Part shown: positions 5,709 to 63,681 of the stretch, piece after piece
Layout: each line of letters opens with the position of its first letter
Position numbering within the stretch: the first letter of the stretch is position 1
Source: an uncultured Staphylococcaceae bacterium
Lineage (GTDB): Bacteria; Bacillota_I; Bacilli_A; RFN20; CAG-826
Assembly: GCA_964504595.1 (NCBI GenBank)
Contig: CAZDEE010000007.1
Span: 725 to 64,724 of the forward strand
Length of the DNA stretch: 64,000 nucleotides
Reading direction: 5' to 3'
Position numbers and translations under genes: made by a program
The notes under the pieces: model-generated
The model's input: only the letters and a program-made list of their open reading frames with translations
Told to the model about the DNA's origin: nothing
The model's database searches: none

Positions 5709-6492
5709 TTTTATAAGCCTCCCAAACATTTTTTAATAATGATAATCTCGTTAATAAACCCACCCCTCCAGGAACAGGTGTTTGAAGTTGAACTTTTAAT
5801 CCAGGTTTGCAATCACCATAAAGTTTTCCTTCTTCTCGAACAATGCCAATATCAACAATAATCGCATTTTCTTTATATGTAATCGAATCATCTAACATCC
5901 ATTTTTTGCCTACTGCACTAAAAATTAAATCAGCATTTTCTAAATATCTTTTTTTGTCTTCTTCCTTTGTTCTTGAATGTAAAACAGTACAGTTCGTACT
6001 TAAATCAATTAACAATTTTGCTAAAGGACGTCCAACAATATTGCTTCTACCAATTACAACAGCATTCTTGCCACTAAAAGAAACATTTTCCGCTTTTAAA
6101 TAATCAATAACACCTTTAGGAGTGCATGCGATAAAAGAAGAACAAGGATGGAATCCATCAACATCTTTTAAAGGATTAACATATAATTTAATCTTTTCTT
6201 CATCAATATGTGCAGGTAAAGGCATCTGCACAATATAGCCATGAACATCATCACGAGTATTTAACTCATCTAACACTTTAAGTAAATCTTCTTCACTAGT
6301 ATTCAAAGATAATTTTATTAATTCAGAAATAATTCCAACTTCACTACAATCTTTTATCTTACCTTTAACATAGGCATTGCTTGCTGGATCATCATTCATT
6401 TGCACAATAACCAAATGAGGTTTAATAATTAAGTTATCAATTTTTTCTTTTAATTTTATTTTTTCTTGATTAACATATTCTTTTATTTCCAT
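5698..6492 (-). CDS. folD: Bifunctional 5,10-methylene-THF dehydrogenase/cyclohydrolase
   Basis: PHLVIVQMNDDPASNAYVKGKIK, GYIVQMPLPAHI, VVIGRSNIVGRPLAKLL and PVPGGVGLLT motifs. Confidence 0.9.
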   Translation of the reverse strand: MEIKEYVNQEKIKLKEKIDNLIIKPHLVIVQMNDDPASNAYVKGKIKDCSEVGIISELIKLSLNTSEEDLLKVLDELNTRDDVHGYIVQMPLPAHIDEEKIKLYVNPLKDVDGFHPCSSFIACTPKGVIDYLKAENVSFSGKNAVVIGRSNIVGRPLAKLLIDLSTNCTVLHSRTKEEDKKRYLENADLIFSAVGKKWMLDDSITYKENAIIVDIGIVREEGKLYGDCKPGLKVQLQTPVPGGVGLLTRLSLLKNVWEAYKNGI

Positions 6493-6708: not shown

Positions 6709-7617
6709 ATGGCAAATCCAAATCTAAAAGAAAATAAATTAATTAGAACCGTCGTGTTACCTTTTCGTAATGTAATTAAAACTTTTTTCCCTATTACATA
6801 TGTAAAGCTTCAATATAAGTATATTACACATCATAAACTAAATTTAAAAAATCCTATTAGATATACAGAAAAGCTTCAATATTTAAGAGTGTATACTTAT
6901 CCGAAAAATCCTCTTGTTAGCAAATGTGCTTCTCGAGATGGCTTAAGAGAATACGCTAGTGAATTAGGATTAGAAAAATATCTTGTTCCTATCATAGGTA
7001 TTTATTCATCTTTTGATGAAATAGATTTTAATAAATTACCAGATGCATTTGTTATGAAATGTACTCACGGAAGCGCAATGAACGCAATTATAGAAGATAA
7101 AGCAATAATTGATATCTTAGATTTAAAAAAGAAATTTGATAAATGGCTTAAAACTGATTATGGTAAAAAAACAATGGAAAGACATTATTCTCCTATTAAG
7201 CCAAAAATAATAATTGAACATCTATTAAAAGAAAATGATTATTTACCTATTGAGTATAAAATTCATGTATTTAATGGAAAAGCAAAATCATTATATGTTG
7301 TTACAAACAGAGGAAAGGATATCCGCTACACCAACTTCTACATTAATTGGGAAAGATTTGATGGATCACAATTTAATGGTTGGAAAAGTAGTAAAATAGA
7401 ACCTTCAAAGCCAAATAATTTTGATGAAATGATTTTTCTTGCTGAAAAATTAGCCTCACCTTTTCCTTTTGTGCGAGTGGATCTTTACTCCATTGAAGGA
7501 AAGATATATATAAGTGAAATGACATTTACACCCGCAAAAGGAACGCTTATACTTGATGATGATAATGCTGATTTTGAAATGGGAAGATGGTTAAAACTAG
7601 AAATGGAGGATAAATAA
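6709..7617 (+). CDS. ATP-grasp amidoligase, TupA-like family
   Basis: NLKNPIRYTEKLQYLRV, FVMKCTHGSAMN, EYKIHVFNGKAKSLYV and FVRVDLYSIEGKIYISEMTFTP match the TupA-like ATP-grasp pattern. Confidence 0.7.
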   Translation: MANPNLKENKLIRTVVLPFRNVIKTFFPITYVKLQYKYITHHKLNLKNPIRYTEKLQYLRVYTYPKNPLVSKCASRDGLREYASELGLEKYLVPIIGIYSSFDEIDFNKLPDAFVMKCTHGSAMNAIIEDKAIIDILDLKKKFDKWLKTDYGKKTMERHYSPIKPKIIIEHLLKENDYLPIEYKIHVFNGKAKSLYVVTNRGKDIRYTNFYINWERFDGSQFNGWKSSKIEPSKPNNFDEMIFLAEKLASPFPFVRVDLYSIEGKIYISEMTFTPAKGTLILDDDNADFEMGRWLKLEMEDK

Positions 7618-11461: not shown

Positions 11462-15957
<4,496 letters not shown>

Positions 15958-51740: not shown

Positions 51741-54530
51741 TTATCTAACATATTTTCTTTTATTAGTAAAATAATAAATACAAATAGTAATTAAACCTAA
51801 TAAAATAACTAACAAAGGAACAATACTTCTTAATGAAATAACATTAACTAATGTATTTCCTACATTAGATTGATTATTTTCTAAGAAAGTTAATCTCGCT
51901 TTTGCGTATTCTATCGAATGACCAATCTTACAAGTTCCATAATCATTACTAATATCATCAGCGTTATCAACAATATCCTTACCAAAAGTATCTAAATTAT
52001 CATAATCTTTAATTAAATCAGTAAGTATCTTGTTGTTTGTGGAAATATAATCACAGAAACTAGAGCTTGATTCACTATGCATTTCTAACCAAGAATCAAT
52101 GATTTTATTCGCATCACTAACTTTATATATAGCAACATCCTCTTGACCTGAAGCATAACATGCAAATAACGAGCTAGACTTATTATATTTAAGTGTATTA
52201 CGTGTATTAGTACCTTTAGATATAATTGTCGCAATTCCATCTTCATTAATCGAAATTGACCACGAACTATTAATAGATAACGATGTTTCTGTTTTAAGAT
52301 AATTATTACTAGATGATGCTGCATATAAATATCCTGAACCGGTATTAAATGCATATGTATTGTTAACATTACCATTTTCTAAAGTTAATTCTTGAATAAG
52401 ATTATCTGTATATAAATATGAATTAACATCCGTTTTCTTATTAATATTTACTTGCCCTCTATTATTGGGATTTTGTGTTTGACTTAAAGCAACATCGAAT
52501 CCATATGATGCAATAACATAAGTTTCATTTACTTTTAATTCTGAAACATTTTTCACTAATTGATAATATGTTTTATTACCATTAACAACAACTTCACTTT
52601 TTTTATTAACTGTTACTAAACAACTATCTGTTTTATCTCCTGATGTTGCTGTTATAATTGCAGAACCTTCTTTAATTCCAGTAATCATACCATTATTAAC
52701 GGTAACAATATCGTCATTACTGCTTGACCAAGCAACTGTCTTATCAGTCGCATTTTCTGGTAATACTGTCGCGGTTAATGTTCTAGAATCACCAAGATAA
52801 ATATCTAAAGAGTGTTCATTTAAAGTAACACTACTTACAAGAATACTACTAATATATTTATAAGTTAATGAATAAGAAGCAATATATAATGAATTTGCGC
52901 TTGCATTAATTGTTATAACAAGGTTTTCATTTTCTTTTATAGTATACTCAGCAATATTATCTAAATTAACATCGATATACTCACTACTAAAACTACCTGT
53001 CCACTCCGCGAAAGATTGATTTGGAATTGAATATAATGTCGTACTACCTGCTTTAACGGTAACAAAACCAGAACCTTTCGATTGATTTGATTTCATATTC
53101 AAGACTATATCTGTAATTTGATATCCTTTAAAACCTGATAAAGTTAAAGTTGCAGAATTGTTAGCGGTAATTTGAGATTTTGTATTATAAGTTTGTAAAT
53201 AACTTGCAGATGTTCCTTCAGGTGATATTCCACTTGTAGTAACACTCGATTTAGATTCAACTGTATATTTAACTGTGTTTGCAGGAATATTATCTTCCTT
53301 AGAATCTCCTCCGCTTGTAGAACTTACTGTCACTAAACATGAAGCGGTTTTACCATTAGTTGTTGCTGCGGTAATTGTCGCCGTTCCTTCACTAATACCT
53401 CTAACTAAACCATCATCTACTGTTGCAATTTCATTATTACTTGTCGACCATGTCACGGATTTATTTAAAGCATTAGAAGGTTTATATGTTACTTGTAATG
53501 ATTGTAAACTACCAACTGAAATATTAATGTTACTAGGAGTAATAGAAATTGATTGCACTTCAACATCTTTACCTTCATCACATAATGCTCCATTGCCAAC
53601 ATAAGTATCATCCCAAATCATTGTTGCAAATTCAGGATGATCAATAAATGGATTTCTTGTACCTGTAACTGCTGTACAATAATTATTTCTATTCATTTCA
53701 AAATCATCAACTGGATCTAATTCATTCCATTCAAGTAATAAATCAAACGCTGCATTTTCTGTACCTTTAGTCGTATAAACAACACTTGTAATATCTAAAG
53801 CTCCCGTTTTAGAAGTAGTTTTACTATTACTAACATTAGCGCGATTTGCATTCGCGGTAATAGAAGATGAATAATGAGTATACATATACATTAAAATACG
53901 AGCTACATCACCTTTAATTCCATTACGTGGTTCAAATTTACTATCTTTATAATAATTACCTGTTCCATTACCATTATATTTAATTTCCGTTCCTGATTTA
54001 TTTAAATCAGTATATGGATAATTACTTCTTGTGCTATTAATACTTGGATCAGCGGGTCTTAAATGATGGATATCAGCGCCTGCACCTCTATCAGAATTAT
54101 CTGTCTTTTTATATAACCCATTAGAAAGATCCTTTGGCCAAACATGTTCGCGGTTATAATTATTTCCTTCACCCCATAAATTAGAAAAAGATTCACCAGC
54201 ATAAAATAAAATAATATTTGAAGTATTATTTGGATCTTCATCAGAATAAGCTAAACCACTTCTTAATTCAGCATAAGTATTATAATAACGATGTTTAACT
54301 TCCATTAATTCTGCAAGTTGCTCTAACAAAGCATCACCTTTTAAACCAGTAACATCATAGTTAGTTGTGGTATAAAACTCATTAACATCATTTATTTCAT
54401 CAGCGTATGTTGTCACTAAAGGATCACTATTTGTTCTATCATTATCACCCGCTTGTGCAACAACAATATTACTAAAACATGTTCCTAGTAACATCATCAT
54501 TAGAAACGATATCGATTTCCATTTTTTCAT
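51741..54530 (-). CDS. Cell-surface-anchored extracellular nuclease (Endonuclease I family) with two Big_2 Ig-like domains
   Basis: Signal peptide MKKWKSISFLMMMLLG...AQA. NREHVWPKDLSNG...ADIHHLRPADPSINSTRSNYPY matches the Endonuclease_1 pattern. Two ...VTWSTSNNEIATVDDGLVRGISEGTATITA / ...VAWSSSNDDIVTVNNGMITGIKEGSAIITA repeats. C-terminal TM segment VPLLVILLGLITICIYYF followed by basic residues. Confidence 0.7.
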   Translation of the reverse strand: MKKWKSISFLMMMLLGTCFSNIVVAQAGDNDRTNSDPLVTTYADEINDVNEFYTTTNYDVTGLKGDALLEQLAELMEVKHRYYNTYAELRSGLAYSDEDPNNTSNIILFYAGESFSNLWGEGNNYNREHVWPKDLSNGLYKKTDNSDRGAGADIHHLRPADPSINSTRSNYPYTDLNKSGTEIKYNGNGTGNYYKDSKFEPRNGIKGDVARILMYMYTHYSSSITANANRANVSNSKTTSKTGALDITSVVYTTKGTENAAFDLLLEWNELDPVDDFEMNRNNYCTAVTGTRNPFIDHPEFATMIWDDTYVGNGALCDEGKDVEVQSISITPSNINISVGSLQSLQVTYKPSNALNKSVTWSTSNNEIATVDDGLVRGISEGTATITAATTNGKTASCLVTVSSTSGGDSKEDNIPANTVKYTVESKSSVTTSGISPEGTSASYLQTYNTKSQITANNSATLTLSGFKGYQITDIVLNMKSNQSKGSGFVTVKAGSTTLYSIPNQSFAEWTGSFSSEYIDVNLDNIAEYTIKENENLVITINASANSLYIASYSLTYKYISSILVSSVTLNEHSLDIYLGDSRTLTATVLPENATDKTVAWSSSNDDIVTVNNGMITGIKEGSAIITATSGDKTDSCLVTVNKKSEVVVNGNKTYYQLVKNVSELKVNETYVIASYGFDVALSQTQNPNNRGQVNINKKTDVNSYLYTDNLIQELTLENGNVNNTYAFNTGSGYLYAASSSNNYLKTETSLSINSSWSISINEDGIATIISKGTNTRNTLKYNKSSSLFACYASGQEDVAIYKVSDANKIIDSWLEMHSESSSSFCDYISTNNKILTDLIKDYDNLDTFGKDIVDNADDISNDYGTCKIGHSIEYAKARLTFLENNQSNVGNTLVNVISLRSIVPLLVILLGLITICIYYFTNKRKYVR

Positions 54531-54688: not shown

Positions 54689-55609
54689 TTATTTAAACAG
54701 TTTTTCCATCTTTAAGATTACTTTTCTTTTTTGTTCAATATTTGGATGTACATAAAGATTCATTGTTGTTGTAATACTTGAATGACCTAAAATCACACTG
54801 ACGGTTTTATAGTCACAATTACTTTCTATACATCTTGTGGCAAAGCTATGCCTTAAACCATGAAACTTTATAACTGGAATATCTAATTTCTTTAATATCT
54901 TCTTAAAATAATTACGATATGTTCTTGGTTCTATAGGATTGATGTCATTAGATATAACATAGTATTCTTTATTTAAGAACTTTTTAAATGATTTAATTAT
55001 TCTATATAATTCACTAGTTAATGGTATTTCTCGATATGAATTAATTGTTTTTGGTTCACTTATTATTATTTCTGTATTCATCTGATCATAATCATATATT
55101 CTCTGTATGGTTTTACCCACAATAAAAATCTTCTTATCAATATCTATATCTTTCCATTTTAATGCGCATATTTCTCCTATTCTTAATCCTGTAGATAAAC
55201 ATATAAATATTCCTAAATTCTTAAAATTAATATTATCTTTTAAATAGTTAATTAATCTCTTTTGATCATTAATTGATAGTATTTCTAGTTTCTTTTTCTC
55301 ACGTTCTGTAGGAAATAACGCTTCTATTTCATGATATTCAATTAAGTTATTCTTCGATCCAAATTTAATAATCATCTTTAATATCATAATGATATCTTTA
55401 ATAGTCTTTTGAGTTAATTTTTCATCAATCTTATTTAAAATAAAACTTTGAATATCTTCATCTAATATTTTCTCCTTCTCTCCAAAATAAGAAACGATAT
55501 GTTTATCCACTAAAGCAACATAAGTAACATATGTTGATTGTTTTACATATCTTTTCTTTTCCTCTTTCCATAAATTAACAATATCTTTAATTTTCATTTG
55601 CTCTTTCAT
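54689..55609 (-). CDS. Tyrosine site-specific recombinase/integrase
   Basis: TGLRIGEICALKWKDID (Arg I), HGLRHSFAT (H-x-x-R), LGHSSITTTMNLYVH (catalytic Tyr); 306 aa. Confidence 0.85.
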   Translation of the reverse strand: MKEQMKIKDIVNLWKEEKKRYVKQSTYVTYVALVDKHIVSYFGEKEKILDEDIQSFILNKIDEKLTQKTIKDIIMILKMIIKFGSKNNLIEYHEIEALFPTEREKKKLEILSINDQKRLINYLKDNINFKNLGIFICLSTGLRIGEICALKWKDIDIDKKIFIVGKTIQRIYDYDQMNTEIIISEPKTINSYREIPLTSELYRIIKSFKKFLNKEYYVISNDINPIEPRTYRNYFKKILKKLDIPVIKFHGLRHSFATRCIESNCDYKTVSVILGHSSITTTMNLYVHPNIEQKRKVILKMEKLFK

Positions 55610-55846: not shown

Positions 55847-56155
55847 CTAACGAAACTGAACTGCCCTTTCAAAGTTCACTTTAAATCCGACAGCAATAAT
55901 CATTTGTAAATTATAATGATTGGTATTATAAATTTTTCCATCTTCGGCAGTTATTCGAAATTTTCGAGTAGTTGACTCTTTAAGTAATTCATTATCATCA
56001 AAAATTTTCTTAATATGATAATTGATTGTATGCGATTCAACATCAAAAAGTAATCCCATCATTTTTTGAGTCAACCATATATTTTCATCTTCGTATCTAA
56101 CTTCAATATTTTGTGCTTCTTCATCAATGGATGCTATATAAATAAGATATTCAGA
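55847..56155 (-). pseudogene. rhuM: RhuM-family gene remnant (N-terminal third only, no ATG)
   Basis: The open frame reads SEYLIYIASIDEEAQNIEVRYEDENIWLTQKMMGLLFDVESHTINYHIKKIF...HYNLQMIIAVGFKVNFERAVQFR then TAG. Full-length RhuM proteins continue QWAT... for about 200 more aa. Confidence 0.6.
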
Positions 56156-56185
56156 TTATGAACTTTTAATAAGCATTTTTCTTTT

Positions 56186-56203
56186 TTGGTAATTAAAAAC
56201 CAA
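56186..56203 (+). promoter_or_regulatory. Operator-like palindrome copy 1 (TTGGTAATTAAAAACCAA)
   Basis: An 18-nt sequence with 5-bp inverted arms TTGGT/ACCAA, 8 nt upstream of the -35. Identical to the copy at 56253-56270. Confidence 0.55.
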
Positions 56204-56211
56204 AATAATTG

Positions 56212-56239
56212 TTGACACACAAAACCGAAGTAGTATAAT
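56212..56239 (+). promoter_or_regulatory. Near-consensus sigma-A promoter of the methyltransferase gene
   Basis: TTGACA (56212-17), a 16-nt spacer, TATAAT (56234-39), 48 nt upstream of ATG 56287. Confidence 0.65.
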
Positions 56240-56252
56240 TAATAGCGTAAGG

Positions 56253-56270
56253 TTGGTAATTAAAAACCAA
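56253..56270 (+). promoter_or_regulatory. Operator-like palindrome copy 2 (TTGGTAATTAAAAACCAA)
   Basis: The identical 18-mer, 13 nt downstream of the -10 and directly before the RBS GAAAGGAAGG. Confidence 0.55.
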
Positions 56271-56286
56271 GAAAGGAAGGGTCTAT

Positions 56287-58044
56287 ATGAAATTTGAAGA
56301 TTCGATATTTTTAAAAAGAGAGTTTAATTTTGAGGAGCAAAATTTTGCATTAATAAAAGCAATGGTTTTTATCTACGCTTTTAAAAAAGCGAAGATAAAC
56401 TACCCATTATTTGAAGTTAATAATAAAGTAATTAATCAAAATTATTTAATTAACTTACATGATTTAGCAAAAGATAATTTAAAAAAAATATATAATGTAT
56501 GTGGAGAACAATTAGGATGTCTTATTAATGATTGCTTAGAAAATGATAATAGCAACGTGGAATTACAATCGGAATTAATGCATAAATTATTTCTTTTAAA
56601 TAATTTTACAAGCGAAGATATTGAAAAGTATATAACAAATAAAGACAACTATATTTATGAAAAGAATGATTTTAGTTCCCCTAAAAGTCTTATCGATTTA
56701 GTTATAGGATTACTTTCAAAAGGAACCCATCAATCATGGTTTGATTTAGGATGTGGAAATGGTGATTTTTTAATAGAACTAGTGAAAAAAAATAAAAAAA
56801 ATGAATGTTATGGCGAAGACATTAATTATAATTGTCAATTGCTGACAAAAATAAGATTATTCTTCGCTAACGCTAATGCAAAAATATCTGAAAATAATAT
56901 CATCACAAGTCAATATAATGAAATTGTCGATGTTGCATATGCAAACATACCATTTTTAATGAGGTTATCAAAAACTAATTTTGATTATAATAAGCACAAT
57001 AAATACGTAGGAGAATTAAAGCCAACACAAAATGCTGATTGGATATTCGCGGATAGATTACTTCAATCAATCAAAGATAGAGGCATTATTCTTATGACTG
57101 AAGCAAGTTTAATGAATTTTATCGACATAGAGCAAAGAAAAAACGTTATAGAACAAAATCTAGTAGAAGGTATTATAAAATTACCGGATAATTTATTTAT
57201 ATATACTGGAATACCTGTATCTATAGTTATTTTTAATAAACATAAGGACAATCAAGAAATAAAATTTTTAGATGCTTCAAATATGTGTAAAATTGGTAGA
57301 AGACTATCAGAACTCAATGTTTCTGAAATTATAAGTGCATATAATGCCGAAAAGAAAACTACAAAAGTTAATATAAAATCAATATCAAAAGATGACTATA
57401 GTCTTCATGTAAAAAAATACTTAGATGTCAATGAAATTTTTCTTGAAAATGAAGTACCTTTAGAAAAAGTAGTTAATGAAGTATTCAGAGGTGCACAAAT
57501 TTCAGCGCCTGAAATTGATGAATACTGCAAGAATATAAAAGAAGAAGATAAAATATGCAAATTAATTACAGTTGGTGATATACAAGATAGTATGATAGAT
57601 ATCAATAAGCTTCAAATCATTAAAGATGATGGTAAATATAATAGATATGTAGTCAAAAACGGAGACGTTCTTGTTTCTTCTAAGAGCACAAAAATTAAAA
57701 CTACTGTTTTAGAAATACCAAAAGAGGAAAAATTTATAGCAACAGGGAGCTTATTAGTAATTAGGTGCGATCAAGAAAAAATAAATCCTTTTTATCTAAA
57801 AGCATTTTTCGATTCAACTAATGGAAAAAAATTACTAGAATCAATACAAACTGGAACAACGATTATTTCAATTAACGCAACTGCTTTAATGCGAATGAGG
57901 ATATCTTGTATAGATAAGAAAAAACAAGATAAAATTGCAGAAAGGTACTTACTTAAATTAGAGCAATTTAAATCAACTAAATTAAAACTATATGAAATAG
58001 AAAAAGAATTAATTAATGTATTTGATAATTCAATTAAAAACTAA
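56287..58044 (+). CDS. N6-adenine DNA methyltransferase (HsdM/gamma class) fused to a single HsdS-type target-recognition domain
   Basis: Motif X SPKSL, motif I WFDLGCGNGDFL (56743-63), motif IV ANIPF (56944-55; NPPF variant), LPDNLFIYTGIPVSIVIFNK. The C-terminal about 200 aa (from about 57440) has the Methylase_S pattern VGDIQD...VVKNGDVLVSSKS...ATGSLLVIRC...FYLKAFFDS plus a terminal coiled coil. Confidence 0.8.
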   Translation: MKFEDSIFLKREFNFEEQNFALIKAMVFIYAFKKAKINYPLFEVNNKVINQNYLINLHDLAKDNLKKIYNVCGEQLGCLINDCLENDNSNVELQSELMHKLFLLNNFTSEDIEKYITNKDNYIYEKNDFSSPKSLIDLVIGLLSKGTHQSWFDLGCGNGDFLIELVKKNKKNECYGEDINYNCQLLTKIRLFFANANAKISENNIITSQYNEIVDVAYANIPFLMRLSKTNFDYNKHNKYVGELKPTQNADWIFADRLLQSIKDRGIILMTEASLMNFIDIEQRKNVIEQNLVEGIIKLPDNLFIYTGIPVSIVIFNKHKDNQEIKFLDASNMCKIGRRLSELNVSEIISAYNAEKKTTKVNIKSISKDDYSLHVKKYLDVNEIFLENEVPLEKVVNEVFRGAQISAPEIDEYCKNIKEEDKICKLITVGDIQDSMIDINKLQIIKDDGKYNRYVVKNGDVLVSSKSTKIKTTVLEIPKEEKFIATGSLLVIRCDQEKINPFYLKAFFDSTNGKKLLESIQTGTTIISINATALMRMRISCIDKKKQDKIAERYLLKLEQFKSTKLKLYEIEKELINVFDNSIKN

Positions 58045-58087
58045 GTAATAAAATTATAAAAAAATGTTAAAAAGGATGTGATAAACT

Positions 58088-58999
58088 ATGGAAATCAATA
58101 AACAAATACAACTAAGAGGCGGATTCAGTGATAGAAATAAAATTAAGCCATTAAATATGGAAATGCAATTAACAGAATTTGATCAACGAACACGTATCGC
58201 TTTTATTAATTTAATTAAGCAATGGTATGATGATGAATGGTTTGATAATTATAAATATAGTTTCTATGAAAATTTATTAAGCAATGTATTTTCCATATAC
58301 ATATCAGATGATGTTATTTATGAAATAGAAAATGAAGAAAACAAACTATTTAATACTTATATTTATGATATTATAATAAATCAATCTTCTTCATACGATG
58401 ATATATTAACACTCTTAGAGTATATTGTTAATTGCTTTAAAGAAGCAGAAAGAAATGAGCCCTATAATGCTCTTTTCCCTTTCCGTCAAAATAAAGATTA
58501 TACTCAAGAAATTAATAGTTTATTTATAAAAGAATGTGTAGGCTACAGAATGATTGATAACCAAATAATACCAATTACTGATAAAATTGAATTTGAAGAA
58601 ATACAACAAGCTATTAAAAATAAATTTGAAGGGAGCAAAAATCATTTAAAAAAAGCAATCAGCTTTCTTTATGATAAAGAAAAACCTGACTATAAAAATA
58701 GCATAAAAGAAAGTATTAGTGCAGTAGAATCAATTTGCAAAATTATAATAAATAATGATAATACAACTTTAGGGAAAGCACTTAATAAATTAGAAGAATC
58801 AGGTATAAAAATACATAAATCACTAAAATCTGCATTTTCTTCTTTATATGGTTACTCTTCAAACGAAGGTGGTATAAGACACTCAGAAGGAATGCTTGAA
58901 AGCAATGTATCATTTGATGATGCAAAATACATGCTTGTTACATGTTCCGCTTTTATAAATTACTTGATTCCAAAAATAAATAGTATCGATAATAAATAA
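58088..58999 (+). CDS. AbiJ-N-terminal-domain-like protein with a C-terminal HEPN/Abi_C-like helical domain
   Basis: The N-terminus GGFSDRNKIKPLNMEMQLTEFDQRTRIAFINLI resembles the FSxRxGxKP...ELRNxLWN opening of AbiJ_NTD families. The C-terminus has SSLYGYSSNEGGIRHSEG (58868-82). Both calls are from memory of the families. Confidence 0.45.
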   Translation: MEINKQIQLRGGFSDRNKIKPLNMEMQLTEFDQRTRIAFINLIKQWYDDEWFDNYKYSFYENLLSNVFSIYISDDVIYEIENEENKLFNTYIYDIIINQSSSYDDILTLLEYIVNCFKEAERNEPYNALFPFRQNKDYTQEINSLFIKECVGYRMIDNQIIPITDKIEFEEIQQAIKNKFEGSKNHLKKAISFLYDKEKPDYKNSIKESISAVESICKIIINNDNTTLGKALNKLEESGIKIHKSLKSAFSSLYGYSSNEGGIRHSEGMLESNVSFDDAKYMLVTCSAFINYLIPKINSIDNK

Positions 59000-59039
59000 T
59001 CATTTTACGTCCATCTTTAATAAGTTATTTCTTTAAAAC

Positions 59040-59069
59040 GCAAACAAGAAAAATTATTTACAAACAAAT
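59040..59069 (+). repeat. Direct-repeat copy 1 (GCAAACAAGAAAAAT-tattta-CAAACAAAT)
   Basis: Matches 60852-60875 at 24/24 positions apart from a 6-nt insertion. Ends 17 nt before the KAP start codon. Confidence 0.6.
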
Positions 59070-59086
59070 GAAAGGAATTGTGGCTT

Positions 59087-60781
59087 ATGCATGAACAAAT
59101 TAATAAATTTATCCAAAATTATTTAGAAAAAAACAATACTAAAAGTGCAATTATGTTAACTTCACCTTGGGGAACTGGGAAAAGCTACTATATTAATAAT
59201 ACTTTAATTAAGTATCTAGAAGGAAAATGTATTATTATTCCTCTATATGGATTAAAAGATATTAGTGAAATCAGCAAATATATATTTTTAGAATACAAAT
59301 TTAGAAATTTAAACAAAAAAAATATAAGTACAAGTATTTTTAAAATAATAACTAAAATTATTATAAATGGATTTTCAAATTCTTTAGGAATTAATTACGA
59401 TTTAAATGATAAAGAAATCGAAAAAATATACTCATCAATAGATTTATCCAACAAACTATTAATATTCGAAGATGTAGAAAGAACTAAAATAGACATCTTA
59501 GAATTATTAGGATTTATCAATAGTTTAGTTGAAGATAATGTAAAAGTATTACTTGTCACTAATGAAGACGAGTTTAAATCTAATGACGCTTATTTAAAAA
59601 TAAAAGAAAAAACAATAAGTGATACAATTTATTATAACTTTCCTATCGAAGACACTATTAAAAGTATTGTTTCATCATTCAATAATGAAAAACTAAATTA
59701 TTTAATTAATGAAGACGATATGATTGATAATATTAAAGAAATAATGAATAAAACAAATGGTAATTTAAGGACCTTTATTTTAGCATGCCAAAAAACGATA
59801 GATATTTTAGAAACCTCAGATAAATTAAATAAAAACTTTATGAAAAAAATATTCTTAGGAAACATTGCTTTTTTATTAAAAAATCGAGATAAAACTACTA
59901 AATGGAATCTTGATGAAGAAATAGCATCTCATTCGTTAGGCACATACAAATTTCCTCTTTATAAAATATCTTACGACTATATAATAAATCAAATTTTAGA
60001 TAAAGAAACCCTAGAAAAAGTAAATGACAACTATTGCAAATTAGAAAAAAATAATAAAAAAAATAAAGAAATAGAAAGATATATGCAAACTATTTATAAC
60101 TGTTATACTTCTAATGAAAAAGAATTAATAAATGCTATAAAATATGTAACTGAAAAAATTCTTAACAAAGATATCGATGTTAATAATTATATAATGTTAG
60201 CAAATTATCTAATAGCAATTAAGTACGACCTAGAAATAGATAAAGAAGTAGTAGATAATTGTCTAAAAGCAATGTTATCTTCTGATATAGAAATAGAAAA
60301 TGAAACCCTTGATTTAGATAATTACTCAGGAATAAAGCTAGTAGACAAAAAAGCTATCGATGAATTTATTGATTTTAGTAAAAAATTAAAAAAAACAATA
60401 TATTCTTCCGTTAAAGCTAATATTATTGGATTTGATTATACTATAGAAAAAATCGATGAATTTTATGAAAAAGTTAAAATTAATAGTGATTCATTTATTT
60501 TAAAAAAAGGATTTGCTAAATATATTGATATTACAAAGTTTGCTGAATTAATAAAAAAATGTAACGCCTTTAACATATTTACTATTAATAAAATATTTAA
60601 AACAATCTATAATTTAAGCAATATAAGGGATTTCTTTTATGATGATAAAAGCAATTTAAGCGAATTAAAAGAAAAAATAGAAAAATTAAAAGAAGAACAA
60701 GGTCTTGATAAAGTTAAAAAATACCAATATAAGAATTTTATTACTTATTTAGATAGTACAATTAAAAGACTAAATATGTAA
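59087..60781 (+). CDS. KAP-family P-loop NTPase
   Basis: Walker A LTSPWGTGKSYY (59171-85), Walker B LLIFEDVER, and a long helical C-terminal half. ATG 59087 follows AAAGGAA; the track ORF starts at TTG 59078. Confidence 0.7.
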   Translation: MHEQINKFIQNYLEKNNTKSAIMLTSPWGTGKSYYINNTLIKYLEGKCIIIPLYGLKDISEISKYIFLEYKFRNLNKKNISTSIFKIITKIIINGFSNSLGINYDLNDKEIEKIYSSIDLSNKLLIFEDVERTKIDILELLGFINSLVEDNVKVLLVTNEDEFKSNDAYLKIKEKTISDTIYYNFPIEDTIKSIVSSFNNEKLNYLINEDDMIDNIKEIMNKTNGNLRTFILACQKTIDILETSDKLNKNFMKKIFLGNIAFLLKNRDKTTKWNLDEEIASHSLGTYKFPLYKISYDYIINQILDKETLEKVNDNYCKLEKNNKKNKEIERYMQTIYNCYTSNEKELINAIKYVTEKILNKDIDVNNYIMLANYLIAIKYDLEIDKEVVDNCLKAMLSSDIEIENETLDLDNYSGIKLVDKKAIDEFIDFSKKLKKTIYSSVKANIIGFDYTIEKIDEFYEKVKINSDSFILKKGFAKYIDITKFAELIKKCNAFNIFTINKIFKTIYNLSNIRDFFYDDKSNLSELKEKIEKLKEEQGLDKVKKYQYKNFITYLDSTIKRLNM

Positions 60782-61053: not shown

Positions 61054-62172
61054 ATGAAATTGTTAAGAATTCGTGCATCAAACTATAAGAATTGTTGTGA
61101 TAATTTTACAATTGATTTTATAGCTAAATCCAAGAAAACAAGCGAAGATAAAGAGTATGAATTACAAGAAATTGCAGAAGAATTATATGTTTTTAATACA
61201 GCTGCCTTTGTGGGTAAAAATGCATCTGGAAAAACTTCCGCGATTGAATTAATGGATTGTTGCTATTCCATTCTTAGTGAATTCCATTTAGAAAACAATC
61301 ATTATAATTATGATAATGTAAAACTAGAAATCATTTTCTATCATGAAGACTATATTTATAAATACACTACTGTTTTAAAGGCCGATTCAAATTCAGAAAA
61401 TAAAGCCAATTTTACAGAACAACATATTTATCGAAAAAAATATTATAAATCTAAAGTAAAAGAAATTTATTCAAATGATGAATTTGAAGAAATCAAAGAT
61501 TTAGGAGAACTTCCAGAAGATACTTCAATTGTTTTTTTTGTATTGAAAAGAAAAACAACTCGTGCTGTTTATTTTAATTGCAATGGTGAAGGAGTGGACA
61601 CATATCGCCTATTATTTAGAGCAATGAATACTTATAAAATATCAAAAGAAGTATTAATCAAGATTATAAGAATTTTTGATGATAATATTCAAAGCTTAGA
61701 AATGATGGATGAAAAGCATTATAAATTAACATATCAAAATTGTATAAAAGAACTATCTGATTCTGAATTAATTTATATGATTTCTAGTGGAACAACAAAA
61801 GGTATCTTGCTTTATATTCTTGTAGTCGCAGCGTTAGAAAACGGATTTGACTTATTAATCGATGAAATAGAAAATCATTTCCATAAAACACTAGTTGAAA
61901 ACATGATTATCTTATTTAAAGATAAAACTGTAAATAAGAAAAATTCAACACTTGTATTTACAACTCATTATTGTGAAGTTTTAGATTTATTTAATCGTCA
62001 AGATAATATTTGGATTGCTAAATCAAATGATAAGATTTATTTAGAGAATATGTATGAAACCTATAATATTAGACCAGAGATTTTAAAGAGTCGTCAATTT
62101 TATAACAATACATTTGATACTTCTGTTAATTATGAAGATCTCATGGCATTGAAAAAGAAGCTAATGAAATGA
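61054..62172 (+). CDS. ABC-type AAA ATPase (AAA_15/AAA_21-like), no fused or adjacent nuclease
   Basis: MKLLRIRASNYKNC, Walker A GKNASGKTS (61213-39), signature-like SSGTTKG, Walker B LLIDEIENHFH, H-loop FTTHY. ATG 61054 follows AAGGAGG; the track ORF starts at TTG 61009. Confidence 0.75.
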   Translation: MKLLRIRASNYKNCCDNFTIDFIAKSKKTSEDKEYELQEIAEELYVFNTAAFVGKNASGKTSAIELMDCCYSILSEFHLENNHYNYDNVKLEIIFYHEDYIYKYTTVLKADSNSENKANFTEQHIYRKKYYKSKVKEIYSNDEFEEIKDLGELPEDTSIVFFVLKRKTTRAVYFNCNGEGVDTYRLLFRAMNTYKISKEVLIKIIRIFDDNIQSLEMMDEKHYKLTYQNCIKELSDSELIYMISSGTTKGILLYILVVAALENGFDLLIDEIENHFHKTLVENMIILFKDKTVNKKNSTLVFTTHYCEVLDLFNRQDNIWIAKSNDKIYLENMYETYNIRPEILKSRQFYNNTFDTSVNYEDLMALKKKLMK

Positions 62173-62188
62173 AGTATTGAATTATATT

Positions 62189-62222
62189 AAAGCATTTGAC
62201 TAAATAGTCGAGTGCTTTTTCT
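62189..62222 (+). terminator. Intrinsic terminator after the AAA ATPase gene
   Basis: A 12-bp stem aaagcatttgac / gtcgagtgcttt (two G-U pairs), loop taaata, then a T-run. Confidence 0.7.
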
Positions 62223-62453: not shown

Positions 62454-62478
62454 ATAATATAGAATGAGGGTGAGAATT

Positions 62479-63681
62479 ATGATTATAAAAAGAAAAGAAT
62501 ATTTAAATAAGTTAATCGCACTTAAAGACAAGAAAGTTATAAAGATTATAACAGGTGTTAGAAGATGTGGAAAATCAACTTTAATGGAGATATTTAAAAA
62601 CTATTTACTCAAAAATGGTGTTAATAAAAAAAATATAATTTCAATAAATTTTGAAGATTTTGATTTTTATGATTTACGAAATCCCAACAAACTATATTCT
62701 TACATAAAAGAAAAGCTAGATAGTGAAAATCAAAACTATATTTTCCTTGACGAAATTCAACATGTGGAAGATTTTCCACGAGTTGTAGATAGCTTATTTA
62801 TAAAAAATAATATTGATATTTATATTACTGGCTCAAATGCATATATGCTCTCTAGTGAAATTGCGACACTAATTTCAGGTAAATACATTGAAATCTCAAT
62901 GCTGCCATTGTCGTTCGCAGAGTTTGTTGAATCAACAGGAGACAAAAAAGACCTTGCAAGAAAATATATTGATTATATTCAAAATAGTTCTTTTCCATAC
63001 ACTTTAGAACTTAGAGACCAAGCAAATGAAATAAAACAGTACCTTGATGGAATTTATAATACAGTTGTTGTAAAAGATATTGCTTATAGAAAAAAAATTA
63101 CAGATATTTCTATGCTTGAAAATATAACAAGATTTATGTTTGACAATATTGGAAATCCGCTTTCAATGAAAAAAATTGCAGATACGATGACTTCTGATGG
63201 TAGAAAAATCGATGTCAAGACAGTTGAAAAATTTATATCTGGACTTACTGAAAGTTTTGTTTTGTATAAAGCAAATCGATATAATATAAAAGGTAAACAA
63301 TATTTAAAAACTCTTGAAAAATATTATGTTGTAGATATTGGGCTTAGGTATATGCTTCTTGGAACTCGTTCAACTGATGTGGGACATATTTTAGAAAATG
63401 TTGTATATTTGGAACTTTTACGTAGAGGATATGATGTGTATGTTGGCAAAGTTGACAACACAGAAGTTGACTTTGTTGCAATTGACAATAAAAAAACAAT
63501 TTATTATCAAGTATCCGCAACTGTTAGAGATGAAAGAACATTAAGAAGAGAACTTAAACCACTTCAAAGCATAAATGATCACTATCCAAAATTTATTTTA
63601 ACATTAGATGAAGATCCTGAAGCCGATTTTGATGGCATAAGAAAAATAAATGCTCTTGATTGGTTACTGGGTGATATTTAA
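62479..63681 (+). CDS. AAA_14 / DUF4143 ATPase
   Basis: MIIKRKEYLNKLIALKDKKVIKIITGVRRCGKSTL (Walker A), IFLDEIQ (Walker B), and a C-terminal DUF4143-like VGHILENVVYLEL...EVDFV. Start set at the sixth codon of the track ORF. Confidence 0.8.
   Translation: MIIKRKEYLNKLIALKDKKVIKIITGVRRCGKSTLMEIFKNYLLKNGVNKKNIISINFEDFDFYDLRNPNKLYSYIKEKLDSENQNYIFLDEIQHVEDFPRVVDSLFIKNNIDIYITGSNAYMLSSEIATLISGKYIEISMLPLSFAEFVESTGDKKDLARKYIDYIQNSSFPYTLELRDQANEIKQYLDGIYNTVVVKDIAYRKKITDISMLENITRFMFDNIGNPLSMKKIADTMTSDGRKIDVKTVEKFISGLTESFVLYKANRYNIKGKQYLKTLEKYYVVDIGLRYMLLGTRSTDVGHILENVVYLELLRRGYDVYVGKVDNTEVDFVAIDNKKTIYYQVSATVRDERTLRRELKPLQSINDHYPKFILTLDEDPEADFDGIRKINALDWLLGDI

Follow-up and report, generated by a model that had tools for sequence, protein, structure and literature searches.

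A restriction-less gene trio in a Staphylococcaceae defence island: a probable mosaic operon led by a methyltransferase-specificity gene with its own operator-promoter cassette

Introduction

Do three co-directional genes that follow a single promoter in a bacterial defence island form one dedicated system, or are they a juxtaposition of genes that work alone? This question is raised by a locus at 56.2–60.8 kb of a 64 000-nt stretch of contig CAZDEE010000007.1 from an uncultured Staphylococcaceae bacterium (the whole stretch is called the window below), where a gene for a fused DNA-modification and specificity protein (M-S) is followed by genes for an AbiJ-like and a KAP-like protein. An earlier note, made from the letters and the open reading frames (ORFs), had taken this trio for a single undescribed defence system. 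Here we compare the three genes with their homologues in genomes and metagenomes and conclude that the locus is probably a mosaic defence-island operon and not a dedicated three-component system. Its more unusual part is not the trio but the operator-promoter cassette of the M-S gene. The GC content of the genome is low (about 27%), and most contigs related to the locus stem from gut and rumen metagenomes. The three genes are:

56287–58044, + strand: M-S fusion gene, 585 amino acids (aa)
58088–58999, + strand: AbiJ-like gene, 303 aa
59087–60781, + strand: KAP-like gene, 564 aa from its ATG, with an alternative TTG start at 59078

Results

The three genes are not conserved as a unit

We surveyed 51 genome loci with an AbiJ-like gene (flanks of 10 kb, labelled by iterated profile searches), 80 metagenome loci with a KAP-like gene, 79 of which could be labelled, and 11 independent loci with an M-S gene. 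The identical arrangement of the trio was found only in four contigs (L001–L004), which encode 100% identical proteins and come from one set of sequencing runs. A KAP-like gene was observed at none of the 51 AbiJ-like loci and an AbiJ-like gene at none of the 79 labelled KAP-like loci, and neither gene lies directly downstream of an M-S homologue at any of the 11 M-S loci. The nearest homologues of the three proteins (55% identity for the AbiJ-like, 49% for the KAP-like and 69% for the M-S protein) each occur in a different context, and both accessory families stand alone in most of their loci. Moreover, the accessory proteins match families that already have a name in PADLOC, PDC-S32 (280 bits) and PDC-S49 (140 bits), both computational single-gene candidates for phage defence. 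The earlier note had itself listed missing co-occurrence and a match to a named system as grounds against its proposal; both were found, so that a single trio system is unsupported.

The same note had remarked on the missing restriction subunit, and this holds: tblastn with three HsdR queries found no HsdR in the island, its sole match in the window being a weak one at 12102–12263 (E = 0.01). No ORF with a ResIII, HSDR_N or SWI2_SNF2 domain is present in 54.6–64 kb, and tblastn of the window revealed no pseudogene remnants of hsdM, hsdS or hsdR.

An operator-promoter cassette accompanies the M-S gene

Two exact copies of an 18-bp palindrome flank the promoter in front of the M-S gene, one on each side:

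56186–56203, + strand: operator copy 1, TTGGTAATTAAAAACCAA, with the core TGGT-N8-ACCA; the −35 hexamer lies 8 bp downstream
56212–56239, + strand: sigma-70-type promoter, TTGACA, 16 nt, TATAAT, matching at 12 of 12 positions and the sole perfect one in 55.6–64 kb
56253–56270, + strand: operator copy 2, an exact duplicate of copy 1, between the −10 hexamer and the ribosome-binding site

There are no further copies of the palindrome in the window. With up to three mismatches allowed, six matches were obtained, a number reached by none of 100 shuffles, and the core has two sites in the 64 kb, both at the M-S promoter, compared to 0.25 expected. By phylogenetic footprinting we observed that a TGGT-N8-ACCA pair brackets a TTGACA/TATAAT promoter at all 11 independent M-S loci, which bears out, at sequence level, the operator-controlled promoter proposed in the earlier note. 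The M-S proteins of these loci are just 23–69% identical to that of the window, and between the cassettes both promoter hexamers are kept while the spacer and the other intervening DNA are not conserved. The 18-mer is identical or one base off in five loci (L009, L149, L150, L152, L153) and varies in four others (L006, L019, L188, L190). At L005 the operator pair lies 1.4 kb upstream of the M-S gene and heads an operon that includes a resolvase gene. The pairs are located at:

window, 56186–56270
L005, 8500–8581
L006, 9896–9975
L009, 9900–9981
L019, 2809–2917
L149, 2171–2253
L150, 1658–1735
L152, 4460–4604
L153, 428–510
L188, 7856–7987
L190, about 6040–6106

Among the 154 loci searched at that stage the 18-mer was present at M-S genes only, and M-S is the sole gene common to all 11 operator-bearing operons. 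The cassette is thus a property of the M-S gene and not of the trio. In L152 (4460–4604) the operator-promoter unit is duplicated in tandem with a 64-bp period, giving three operators and two promoters in front of one M-S homologue.

The operator pair had no matches in viral contigs; the single 18-mer gave 30 scattered one-copy matches there, which we judged to be chance. One viral contig (L185) carries a different palindrome, TTGCA-N9-TGCAA, at about 7230–7310, between the promoter and the ribosome-binding site of a gene for a distant and partial M-S-like protein (31% identity). As a single case, it may fit a co-variation of operator and target recognition domain (TRD). Concerning control by a C protein, as in some restriction-modification (R-M) systems, we found no small ORF with a helix-turn-helix (HTH) in 55.6–58.1 kb, and the operator is unlike GACT...AGTC, which we take to be the C-box of such systems. 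An Rfam search of 54.5–64 kb (E ≤ 1), made for known RNA elements in the operator region and the 5′ untranslated region, gave no match.

Architecture and candidate target of the M-S protein

The earlier note had described the first protein as a fusion of a DNA-modification and a specificity component, and the profile matches bear this out: residues 128–383 match N6_Mtase (1.1e-32), and residues 386–565 form a single TRD that is matched by models of Type I specificity subunits. A helical N-terminal domain precedes this gamma-class N6-adenine methyltransferase, and a C-terminal helix of the dimerisation type follows the TRD. Motif I is intact (DLGCGNGDF), and motif IV reads NIPF where the family consensus is NTPF. 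Since the adenine methyltransferases Erm and KsgA carry N-I/L-P-Y at this motif, the variant need not mean inactivity. The AF2 model of the protein (pLDDT 86) has a long terminal helix at 544–576, and Foldseek aligned it to HsdM subunits (3lkd, 7.6e-21), PacII M1M2S, full-length CamA, M.TaqI and BpuSI, with about 545 aligned columns and a TM of about 0.52 for CamA. As in CamA, M.TaqI and Type IIG-like enzymes, a gamma-class N6-adenine methyltransferase is followed by a Type-I-like TRD in one polypeptide. The M-S protein differs from them in its single TRD with an S-type helix, in NIPF/NTPF instead of NPPF/Y, in the operator cassette and in the small partner described below; no endonuclease domain is present in it. 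An engineered EcoKI M-S fusion (‘Type IMS’) has been found to be functional (PMC3510504). With 66.9 bits against the NCBIfam hsdM model (cut-off 242.75), the catalytic domain appears to be only remotely related to HsdM of the type found at L011.

The TRD (57442–58044 of the window) is the best-conserved region of M-S, being no less conserved than the catalytic domain in 24 of 29 homologues, the reverse of the pattern in ordinary Type I S subunits. An invariant TRD implies a fixed DNA specificity, and a single TRD together with an S-type C-terminal helix implies a dimer: with one TRD per chain, a specificity based on two TRDs would require a homodimer, for which the homology to Esub1 makes a plausible case. 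A homodimer of such half-S subunits would, by analogy, recognise two palindromic half-sites about 8 nt apart, and truncated HsdS dimers recognise sites such as TCA-N8-TGA. Esub1 of Streptococcus pyogenes is the best sequence match of the S part among solved structures (phmmer E = 1.2e-12, S-part residues 41–189 onto Esub1 33–179, 147 residues). It forms a half-S homodimer with two identical DNA-binding heads (PDB 8VSQ/8VSR), is regarded as repressor-like by its authors, and has its DNA cleft blocked by the phage protein paratox (PMC11754733). The M-S protein shares with Esub1 one TRD and a dimerisation helix. Esub1, however, is a free-standing protein of 23 kDa without a methyltransferase, whereas in M-S this module is fused to a methyltransferase that appears active from its motifs, and a candidate target, the operator pair, is in view.

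Which protein binds the operators

The operators at all 11 M-S loci, taken with the invariant Esub1-like TRD, suggest an M-S protein that acts as the repressor of its own promoter. In our judgement the odds are about even that the operators are bound by M-S itself and that the operon is thereby autoregulated. TRD and operator point to autoregulation through a rare palindromic site and not to genome-wide self-marking: a specificity for TGGT-N8-ACCA would mark two sites in 64 kb, both at the M-S promoter itself, which speaks against the self/non-self marker role that had been proposed for the methyltransferase.

A second candidate for operator binding is a small protein of 127–176 aa (~170 aa) that is encoded directly downstream of M-S in 7 of the 11 independent loci:

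L005, 11754–12170
L009, 11749–12273
L019, 4614–5129, overlapping the start of hsdM
L149, 4038–4421
L150, 3517–4047
L152, 6400–6927
L190, 7954–8466

It has no significant Pfam match, and neither a gene nor a remnant of it was found in the window by tblastn. If this partner, the AAA_14/DUF4143 ATPase or a regulator encoded elsewhere bound the operators, M-S would be an orphan or Type-I-associated methyltransferase. We consider this possible, though we would not expect it. M-S has no recognisable HTH, and its all-helical N-terminal domain is included in the structure alignments with HsdM; the small partner gives weak, sub-threshold matches to the SAP domain (E about 0.04); an AAA_14/DUF4143 gene adjoins the cassette in four loci; and the adenines of the palindrome have a polarity that is unusual in Type I targets. 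Against this stands that the operators persist without the small partner (window, L006, L153, L188), which makes it the less likely repressor, and without any AAA_14 gene within 10 kb (L005, L006). M-S alone is shared by all operator-bearing operons, and an invariant TRD related to that of homodimeric Esub1 agrees with a fixed site made of two palindromic halves.

In a further variant M-S would be a methyltransferase-derived repressor, bound to the two operators as an Esub1-like homodimer, that keeps the operon (Type I R-M genes elsewhere, the AbiJ-like and KAP-like genes here) nearly silent and also senses phage anti-restriction proteins. A DNA mimic or a binder of the TRD cleft, such as Ocr, ArdA or a paratox-like protein, would then compete M-S off the operators and derepress the effectors, and the window would hold the minimal, restriction-less version, with bait and switch in one protein. 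We regard this as very improbable.

A precedent for an operator-binding leader is RptR, the first gene product of a defence island, which represses its own synthesis through repeated palindromes at the island promoter (PMC12255303). It is functionally analogous to the role proposed for M-S. RptR itself was rejected as the regulator here, as operator, protein and taxa all differ: it is a helical protein of 9 kDa that uses TAGCTA in Gammaproteobacteria, whereas M-S has 585 aa and the operator TGGT-N8-ACCA and stands in a window without hsd genes.

The accessory proteins belong to catalogued single-gene families

Residues 13–178 of the AbiJ-like protein match AbiJ_NTD4 (PF18863; 9.1e-17, 62.4 bits, cut-off 34), and residues 12–298 match PADLOC PDC-S32 (PDLC04997; 7.8e-84, 279.7 bits, profile positions 9–282 of 285). 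Relatives in RefSeq are annotated ‘AbiJ-NTD4 domain-containing protein’. The protein thus resembles the lactococcal AbiJ family (PF18863 plus PF14355) in a domain that scores above the Pfam cut-off. The two ends that the earlier note had recognised fared differently, the N-terminal AbiJ domain being confirmed and the C-terminal Abi_C/HEPN-type domain having faint or weak matches only. Abi_C (PF14355) gave just a faint precomputed match on this protein, although homologues carry both PF18863 and PF14355. A structure search with the moderately confident AF2 model (pLDDT 71) returned no significant match for a HEPN fold, the sole HEPN entry, 2hsb, being weak (prob 0.82, TM 0.65, E = 3.1). A GGIRHxE motif, in which R264 and H265 are adjacent, is invariant in the family; the canonical Rx4-6H spacing is not visible, there being no H at +5 to +7. 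We therefore speak of a predicted HEPN RNase domain. The C-terminal domain of AbiJ has been classed as HEPN, and the AbiJ-NTD4-plus-AbiJ architecture and the linkage of HEPN genes to R-M genes were described in 2013 (Anantharaman et al., PMC3710099). AbiJ proteins without N-terminal domains are said there to be the commoner ones in R-M operons, whereas here the NTD4-bearing clade sits in Type I operons.

The KAP-like protein matches two profiles of PADLOC PDC-S49: PDLC05031 over its N-terminal half (residues 6–265; 3.3e-41, 140 bits) and PDLC05029 over its full length (residues 4–564, profile positions 4–614 of 619; 3.5e-27, 93 bits). The earlier note's assignment to the KAP NTPases finds indirect support in the homologues and motifs, though not in a Pfam match of the window protein itself, which has none at E ≤ 0.01. 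Of 28 full-length homologues with 34–52% identity, 25 match KAP_NTPase (PF07693; best E 3.8e-09). Walker A reads GTGKS and Walker B FEDVER, and residues W28, G29, G31, K32, S33, E128, D129, E131 and R132 are invariant. The protein thus appears to be a divergent P-loop NTPase of the KAP family, indirectly assigned via its relatives. RNase activity of the AbiJ-like and NTPase activity of the KAP-like protein are presumed from these domains. Apart from the profile matches, the two proteins go beyond their catalogue entries, which as far as we have seen describe neither an embedding in Type I operons nor the present juxtaposition.

Relatives of the accessory genes occupy fixed positions in Type I operons

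Among nine genome loci whose AbiJ-like protein has at least 40% full-length identity, seven have the order hsdM, AbiJ-like gene, hsdS, with frames that overlap or nearly abut. The closest homologue (P0002, 55% identity) likewise has hsdM on one side and hsdS on the other, in a complete Type I operon. Over all non-redundant clusters, hsd genes were found within 3 kb of the AbiJ-like gene in 10 of 37 cases; in distant relatives, e.g. from Acinetobacter, only the C-terminal half aligns and the gene stands alone. For the KAP-like gene hsd genes lie within 3 kb in 12 of 36 clusters, mostly in the order hsdS, KAP-like gene, hsdR with gaps of −45 to +48 nt. The 49%-identical homologue belongs to another defence island, which also holds McrBC, a Schlafen-type helicase and Type I genes. 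In four loci (L009, L019, L150, L153) a Type I operon, complete or cut off by the contig end, follows directly and on the same strand after the M-S gene or after M-S and its small partner gene, and at L019 an AbiJ-like gene is inserted at the hsdM–hsdS junction of that operon. Independent defence genes inserted between hsd genes are also known from TgvAB (PMC11411939) and DarTG2 (PMC12255303); the hsdS–hsdR junction, where DarTG2 is located, is a noted hotspot.

These contexts bear on the proposal that the trio is one restriction-less guard system, with M-S as scaffold, self-marker or bait: the AbiJ-like and KAP-like proteins would be held latent by M-S and become active once it is inhibited or titrated by a phage, as is the case for PrrC, an anticodon nuclease encoded within a Type Ic R-M locus, and EcoprrI. 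Guardian functions of HEPN genes at R-M loci are an established idea (PMC3710099; PMC12707154), and here, too, a predicted HEPN effector gene is linked to adenine-methyltransferase and Type I genes. The shared promoter, the short gaps, the lack of a terminator-like site between the genes and the intact ORFs agree with such a system, and translational coupling ties relatives of both accessory genes to hsdM or hsdS, in a position analogous to that of prrC (PMC3710099; PMC12707154). We nevertheless consider it unlikely. There is no pairwise co-occurrence in the 131 loci or among the nearest homologues, the accessory families are mostly solo and catalogued as single-gene candidates, the partner conserved in the M-S family is another protein, and a TGGT-N8-ACCA specificity would mark very few sites, none away from its own promoter in 64 kb. 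Furthermore, every Type I system in which the relatives occur has an HsdM like that of L011, remote from M-S by the scores given above. Unlike PrrC, the AbiJ-like protein has no P-loop or ABC-ATPase domain, its N-terminus being AbiJ_NTD4, and the window has neither HsdR nor a separate HsdM or HsdS. The analogy to PrrC drawn in the earlier note therefore carries over to the relatives embedded in complete Type I operons and not to the window, which lacks hsd genes. For these relatives PrrC-like guarding is an attractive possibility by analogy; the sole methyltransferase of the window belongs to another family that is only remotely related.

The order M-S, AbiJ-like, KAP-like corresponds to that of L019 combined with the KAP-embedded operons, minus the small partner, hsdM, hsdS and hsdR. 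This could also be read as decay, in which the hsd genes of a Type I operon headed by M-S were lost and what is left no longer functions in defence. Such a relic would explain the gene order, the RhuM pseudogene, and the missing AbiLii partner and usual small partner of M-S. We consider it quite unlikely: all four ORFs (the trio and an AbiLi-like gene) are full-length compared to their homologues with intact catalytic or nucleotide-binding motifs, promoter and operator pair are flawless, the search for hsd remnants came back empty, and in most genomes genes of both accessory families work, or are at least maintained, on their own.

A predicted membrane-like protein of ~220–330 aa without a significant Pfam match recurs in Type I operons that host AbiJ-like or KAP-like genes, between hsdS and hsdR or after hsdR:

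L011, 10189–11172
L023, 12231–12890
L085, 12928–13929
L091, 11172–12092

Transcription unit and island neighbourhood

The ORFs of the trio are intact, separated by gaps of 43 and 87 nt, and each start is preceded by a purine-rich, Shine-Dalgarno-like ribosome-binding site. The arrangement and the strong promoter described in the earlier note are confirmed by the ORF coordinates and a promoter scan. A consensus scan found no terminator-like site between the genes, in agreement with that note, and none directly after the KAP-like gene, where one had been assumed. The trio is probably co-transcribed. Because the only terminator-like site on the + strand follows the AbiLi-like gene, the transcription unit may hold four genes. 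The neighbouring features are:

54689–55609, − strand: gene for a tyrosine recombinase (XerC/D-like), left edge of the island; Phage_integrase 9.4e-29, Phage_int_SAM_3
55847–56074, − strand: RhuM-family remnant, a truncated pseudogene of 75 aa; Virulence_RhuM 4.2e-11, profile positions 1–45 of 252
61054–62172, + strand: gene for an AbiLi-like AAA_21 ATPase, possible fourth gene of the unit; PADLOC AbiLi 3.1e-38, AAA_21 8.7e-12
62189–62218, + strand: terminator-like hairpin with a T-run (13-pair stem, 4-nt loop, then TTCTTATT), the only one of the region on this strand
62464–63681, + strand: separate gene for an AAA_14/DUF4143 ATPase (PADLOC PDC-S01); PDC-S01 2e-163, AAA_14 4.6e-35, DUF4143 3.8e-20

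The locus is a chromosomal defence island: to the left of the recombinase, for which all NCBIfam Xer models score under their cut-offs, lie chromosomal polysaccharide-synthesis genes, with a secreted endonuclease I gene between them and the island. This gene (51741–54530, − strand) encodes a large protein with Endonuclease I and Big_2 domains and a C-terminal membrane anchor. A phage origin of the trio families was rejected, as viral contigs gave just 1, 0 and 2 loci. The RhuM remnant, which also matches PDC-S05 (2.4e-31, profile positions 34–108 of 214), comprises about the first third of the gene; at its full extent (55847–56170, − strand) it has no clear start codon and abuts the M-S operators. 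RhuM-like genes are frequent passengers of R-M loci (PMC3710099). Unlike in AbiL, the AbiLi-like gene has no adjacent AbiLii, and no such partner was found in the window: the gene is followed by the terminator-like hairpin and 290 nt without an ORF, whereas a gene for ~170–205 aa lies downstream of the AbiLi-like gene in L078, L088 and L025. AAA_14/DUF4143 genes adjoin M-S cassettes in the window (62464–63681), L009 (8321–9616), L019 (664–1914) and L152 (3038–4357).

Discussion

In the mosaic operon that we favour, the M-S protein would dimerise, bind the two palindromes and repress its own promoter, holding the operon at a low set-point. The promoter, the operators and the M-S gene would form a cassette that drives PDC-S32, with its AbiJ-NTD4 sensor domain and predicted HEPN RNase, and PDC-S49, the KAP-like NTPase, possibly together with the AbiLi-like gene. 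Most likely, each accessory gene would act alone, as an abortive-infection or stress-triggered effector that is expressed from the M-S promoter. The partner-less pieces nearby, the RhuM fragment and the AbiLi-like gene without AbiLii, we count in favour of a mosaic. The locus may go back to a Type I operon with M-S at its head that lost its hsd genes and the small partner; given that no hsd remnants exist, this is a history that we infer.

Several points weigh against the mosaic operon and its autoregulation. Intact, tightly spaced ORFs behind one promoter without an internal terminator also fit a functional unit, and the affinity of the accessory families for operons with adenine methyltransferases makes a functional link to the methyltransferase possible. 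The 131 loci without co-occurrence are compatible with a young, lineage-specific combination as well. Loss of the hsd genes needs three clean deletions that left no detectable remnants. The assignment of M-S as the operator-binding protein is likewise one that we infer, and another protein may bind; the adenines of TGGT-N8-ACCA have a half-site polarity opposite to that of what we take to be classical Type I targets, so the operator may be bound without being methylated. Finally, we found no experimental evidence on PDC-S32 or PDC-S49 in the searchable literature.

For the count of defence systems, our findings mean that the trio should not be entered as a new multi-gene system, being a lineage-specific juxtaposition of catalogued single-gene candidates. 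What appears to be new is the restriction-less juxtaposition itself and three features of the M-S family: its conserved operator cassette, its invariant TRD and its small partner. Within Type I operons PDC-S32 and PDC-S49 recur as passengers at fixed positions, between hsdM and hsdS and between hsdS and hsdR, respectively, which gives a context for PrrC-like guarding. The M-S family provides a case of a Type-I-like methyltransferase module that possibly serves as autoregulator or leader of an operon, and it also yields a conserved, uncharacterised partner protein of ~170 aa.

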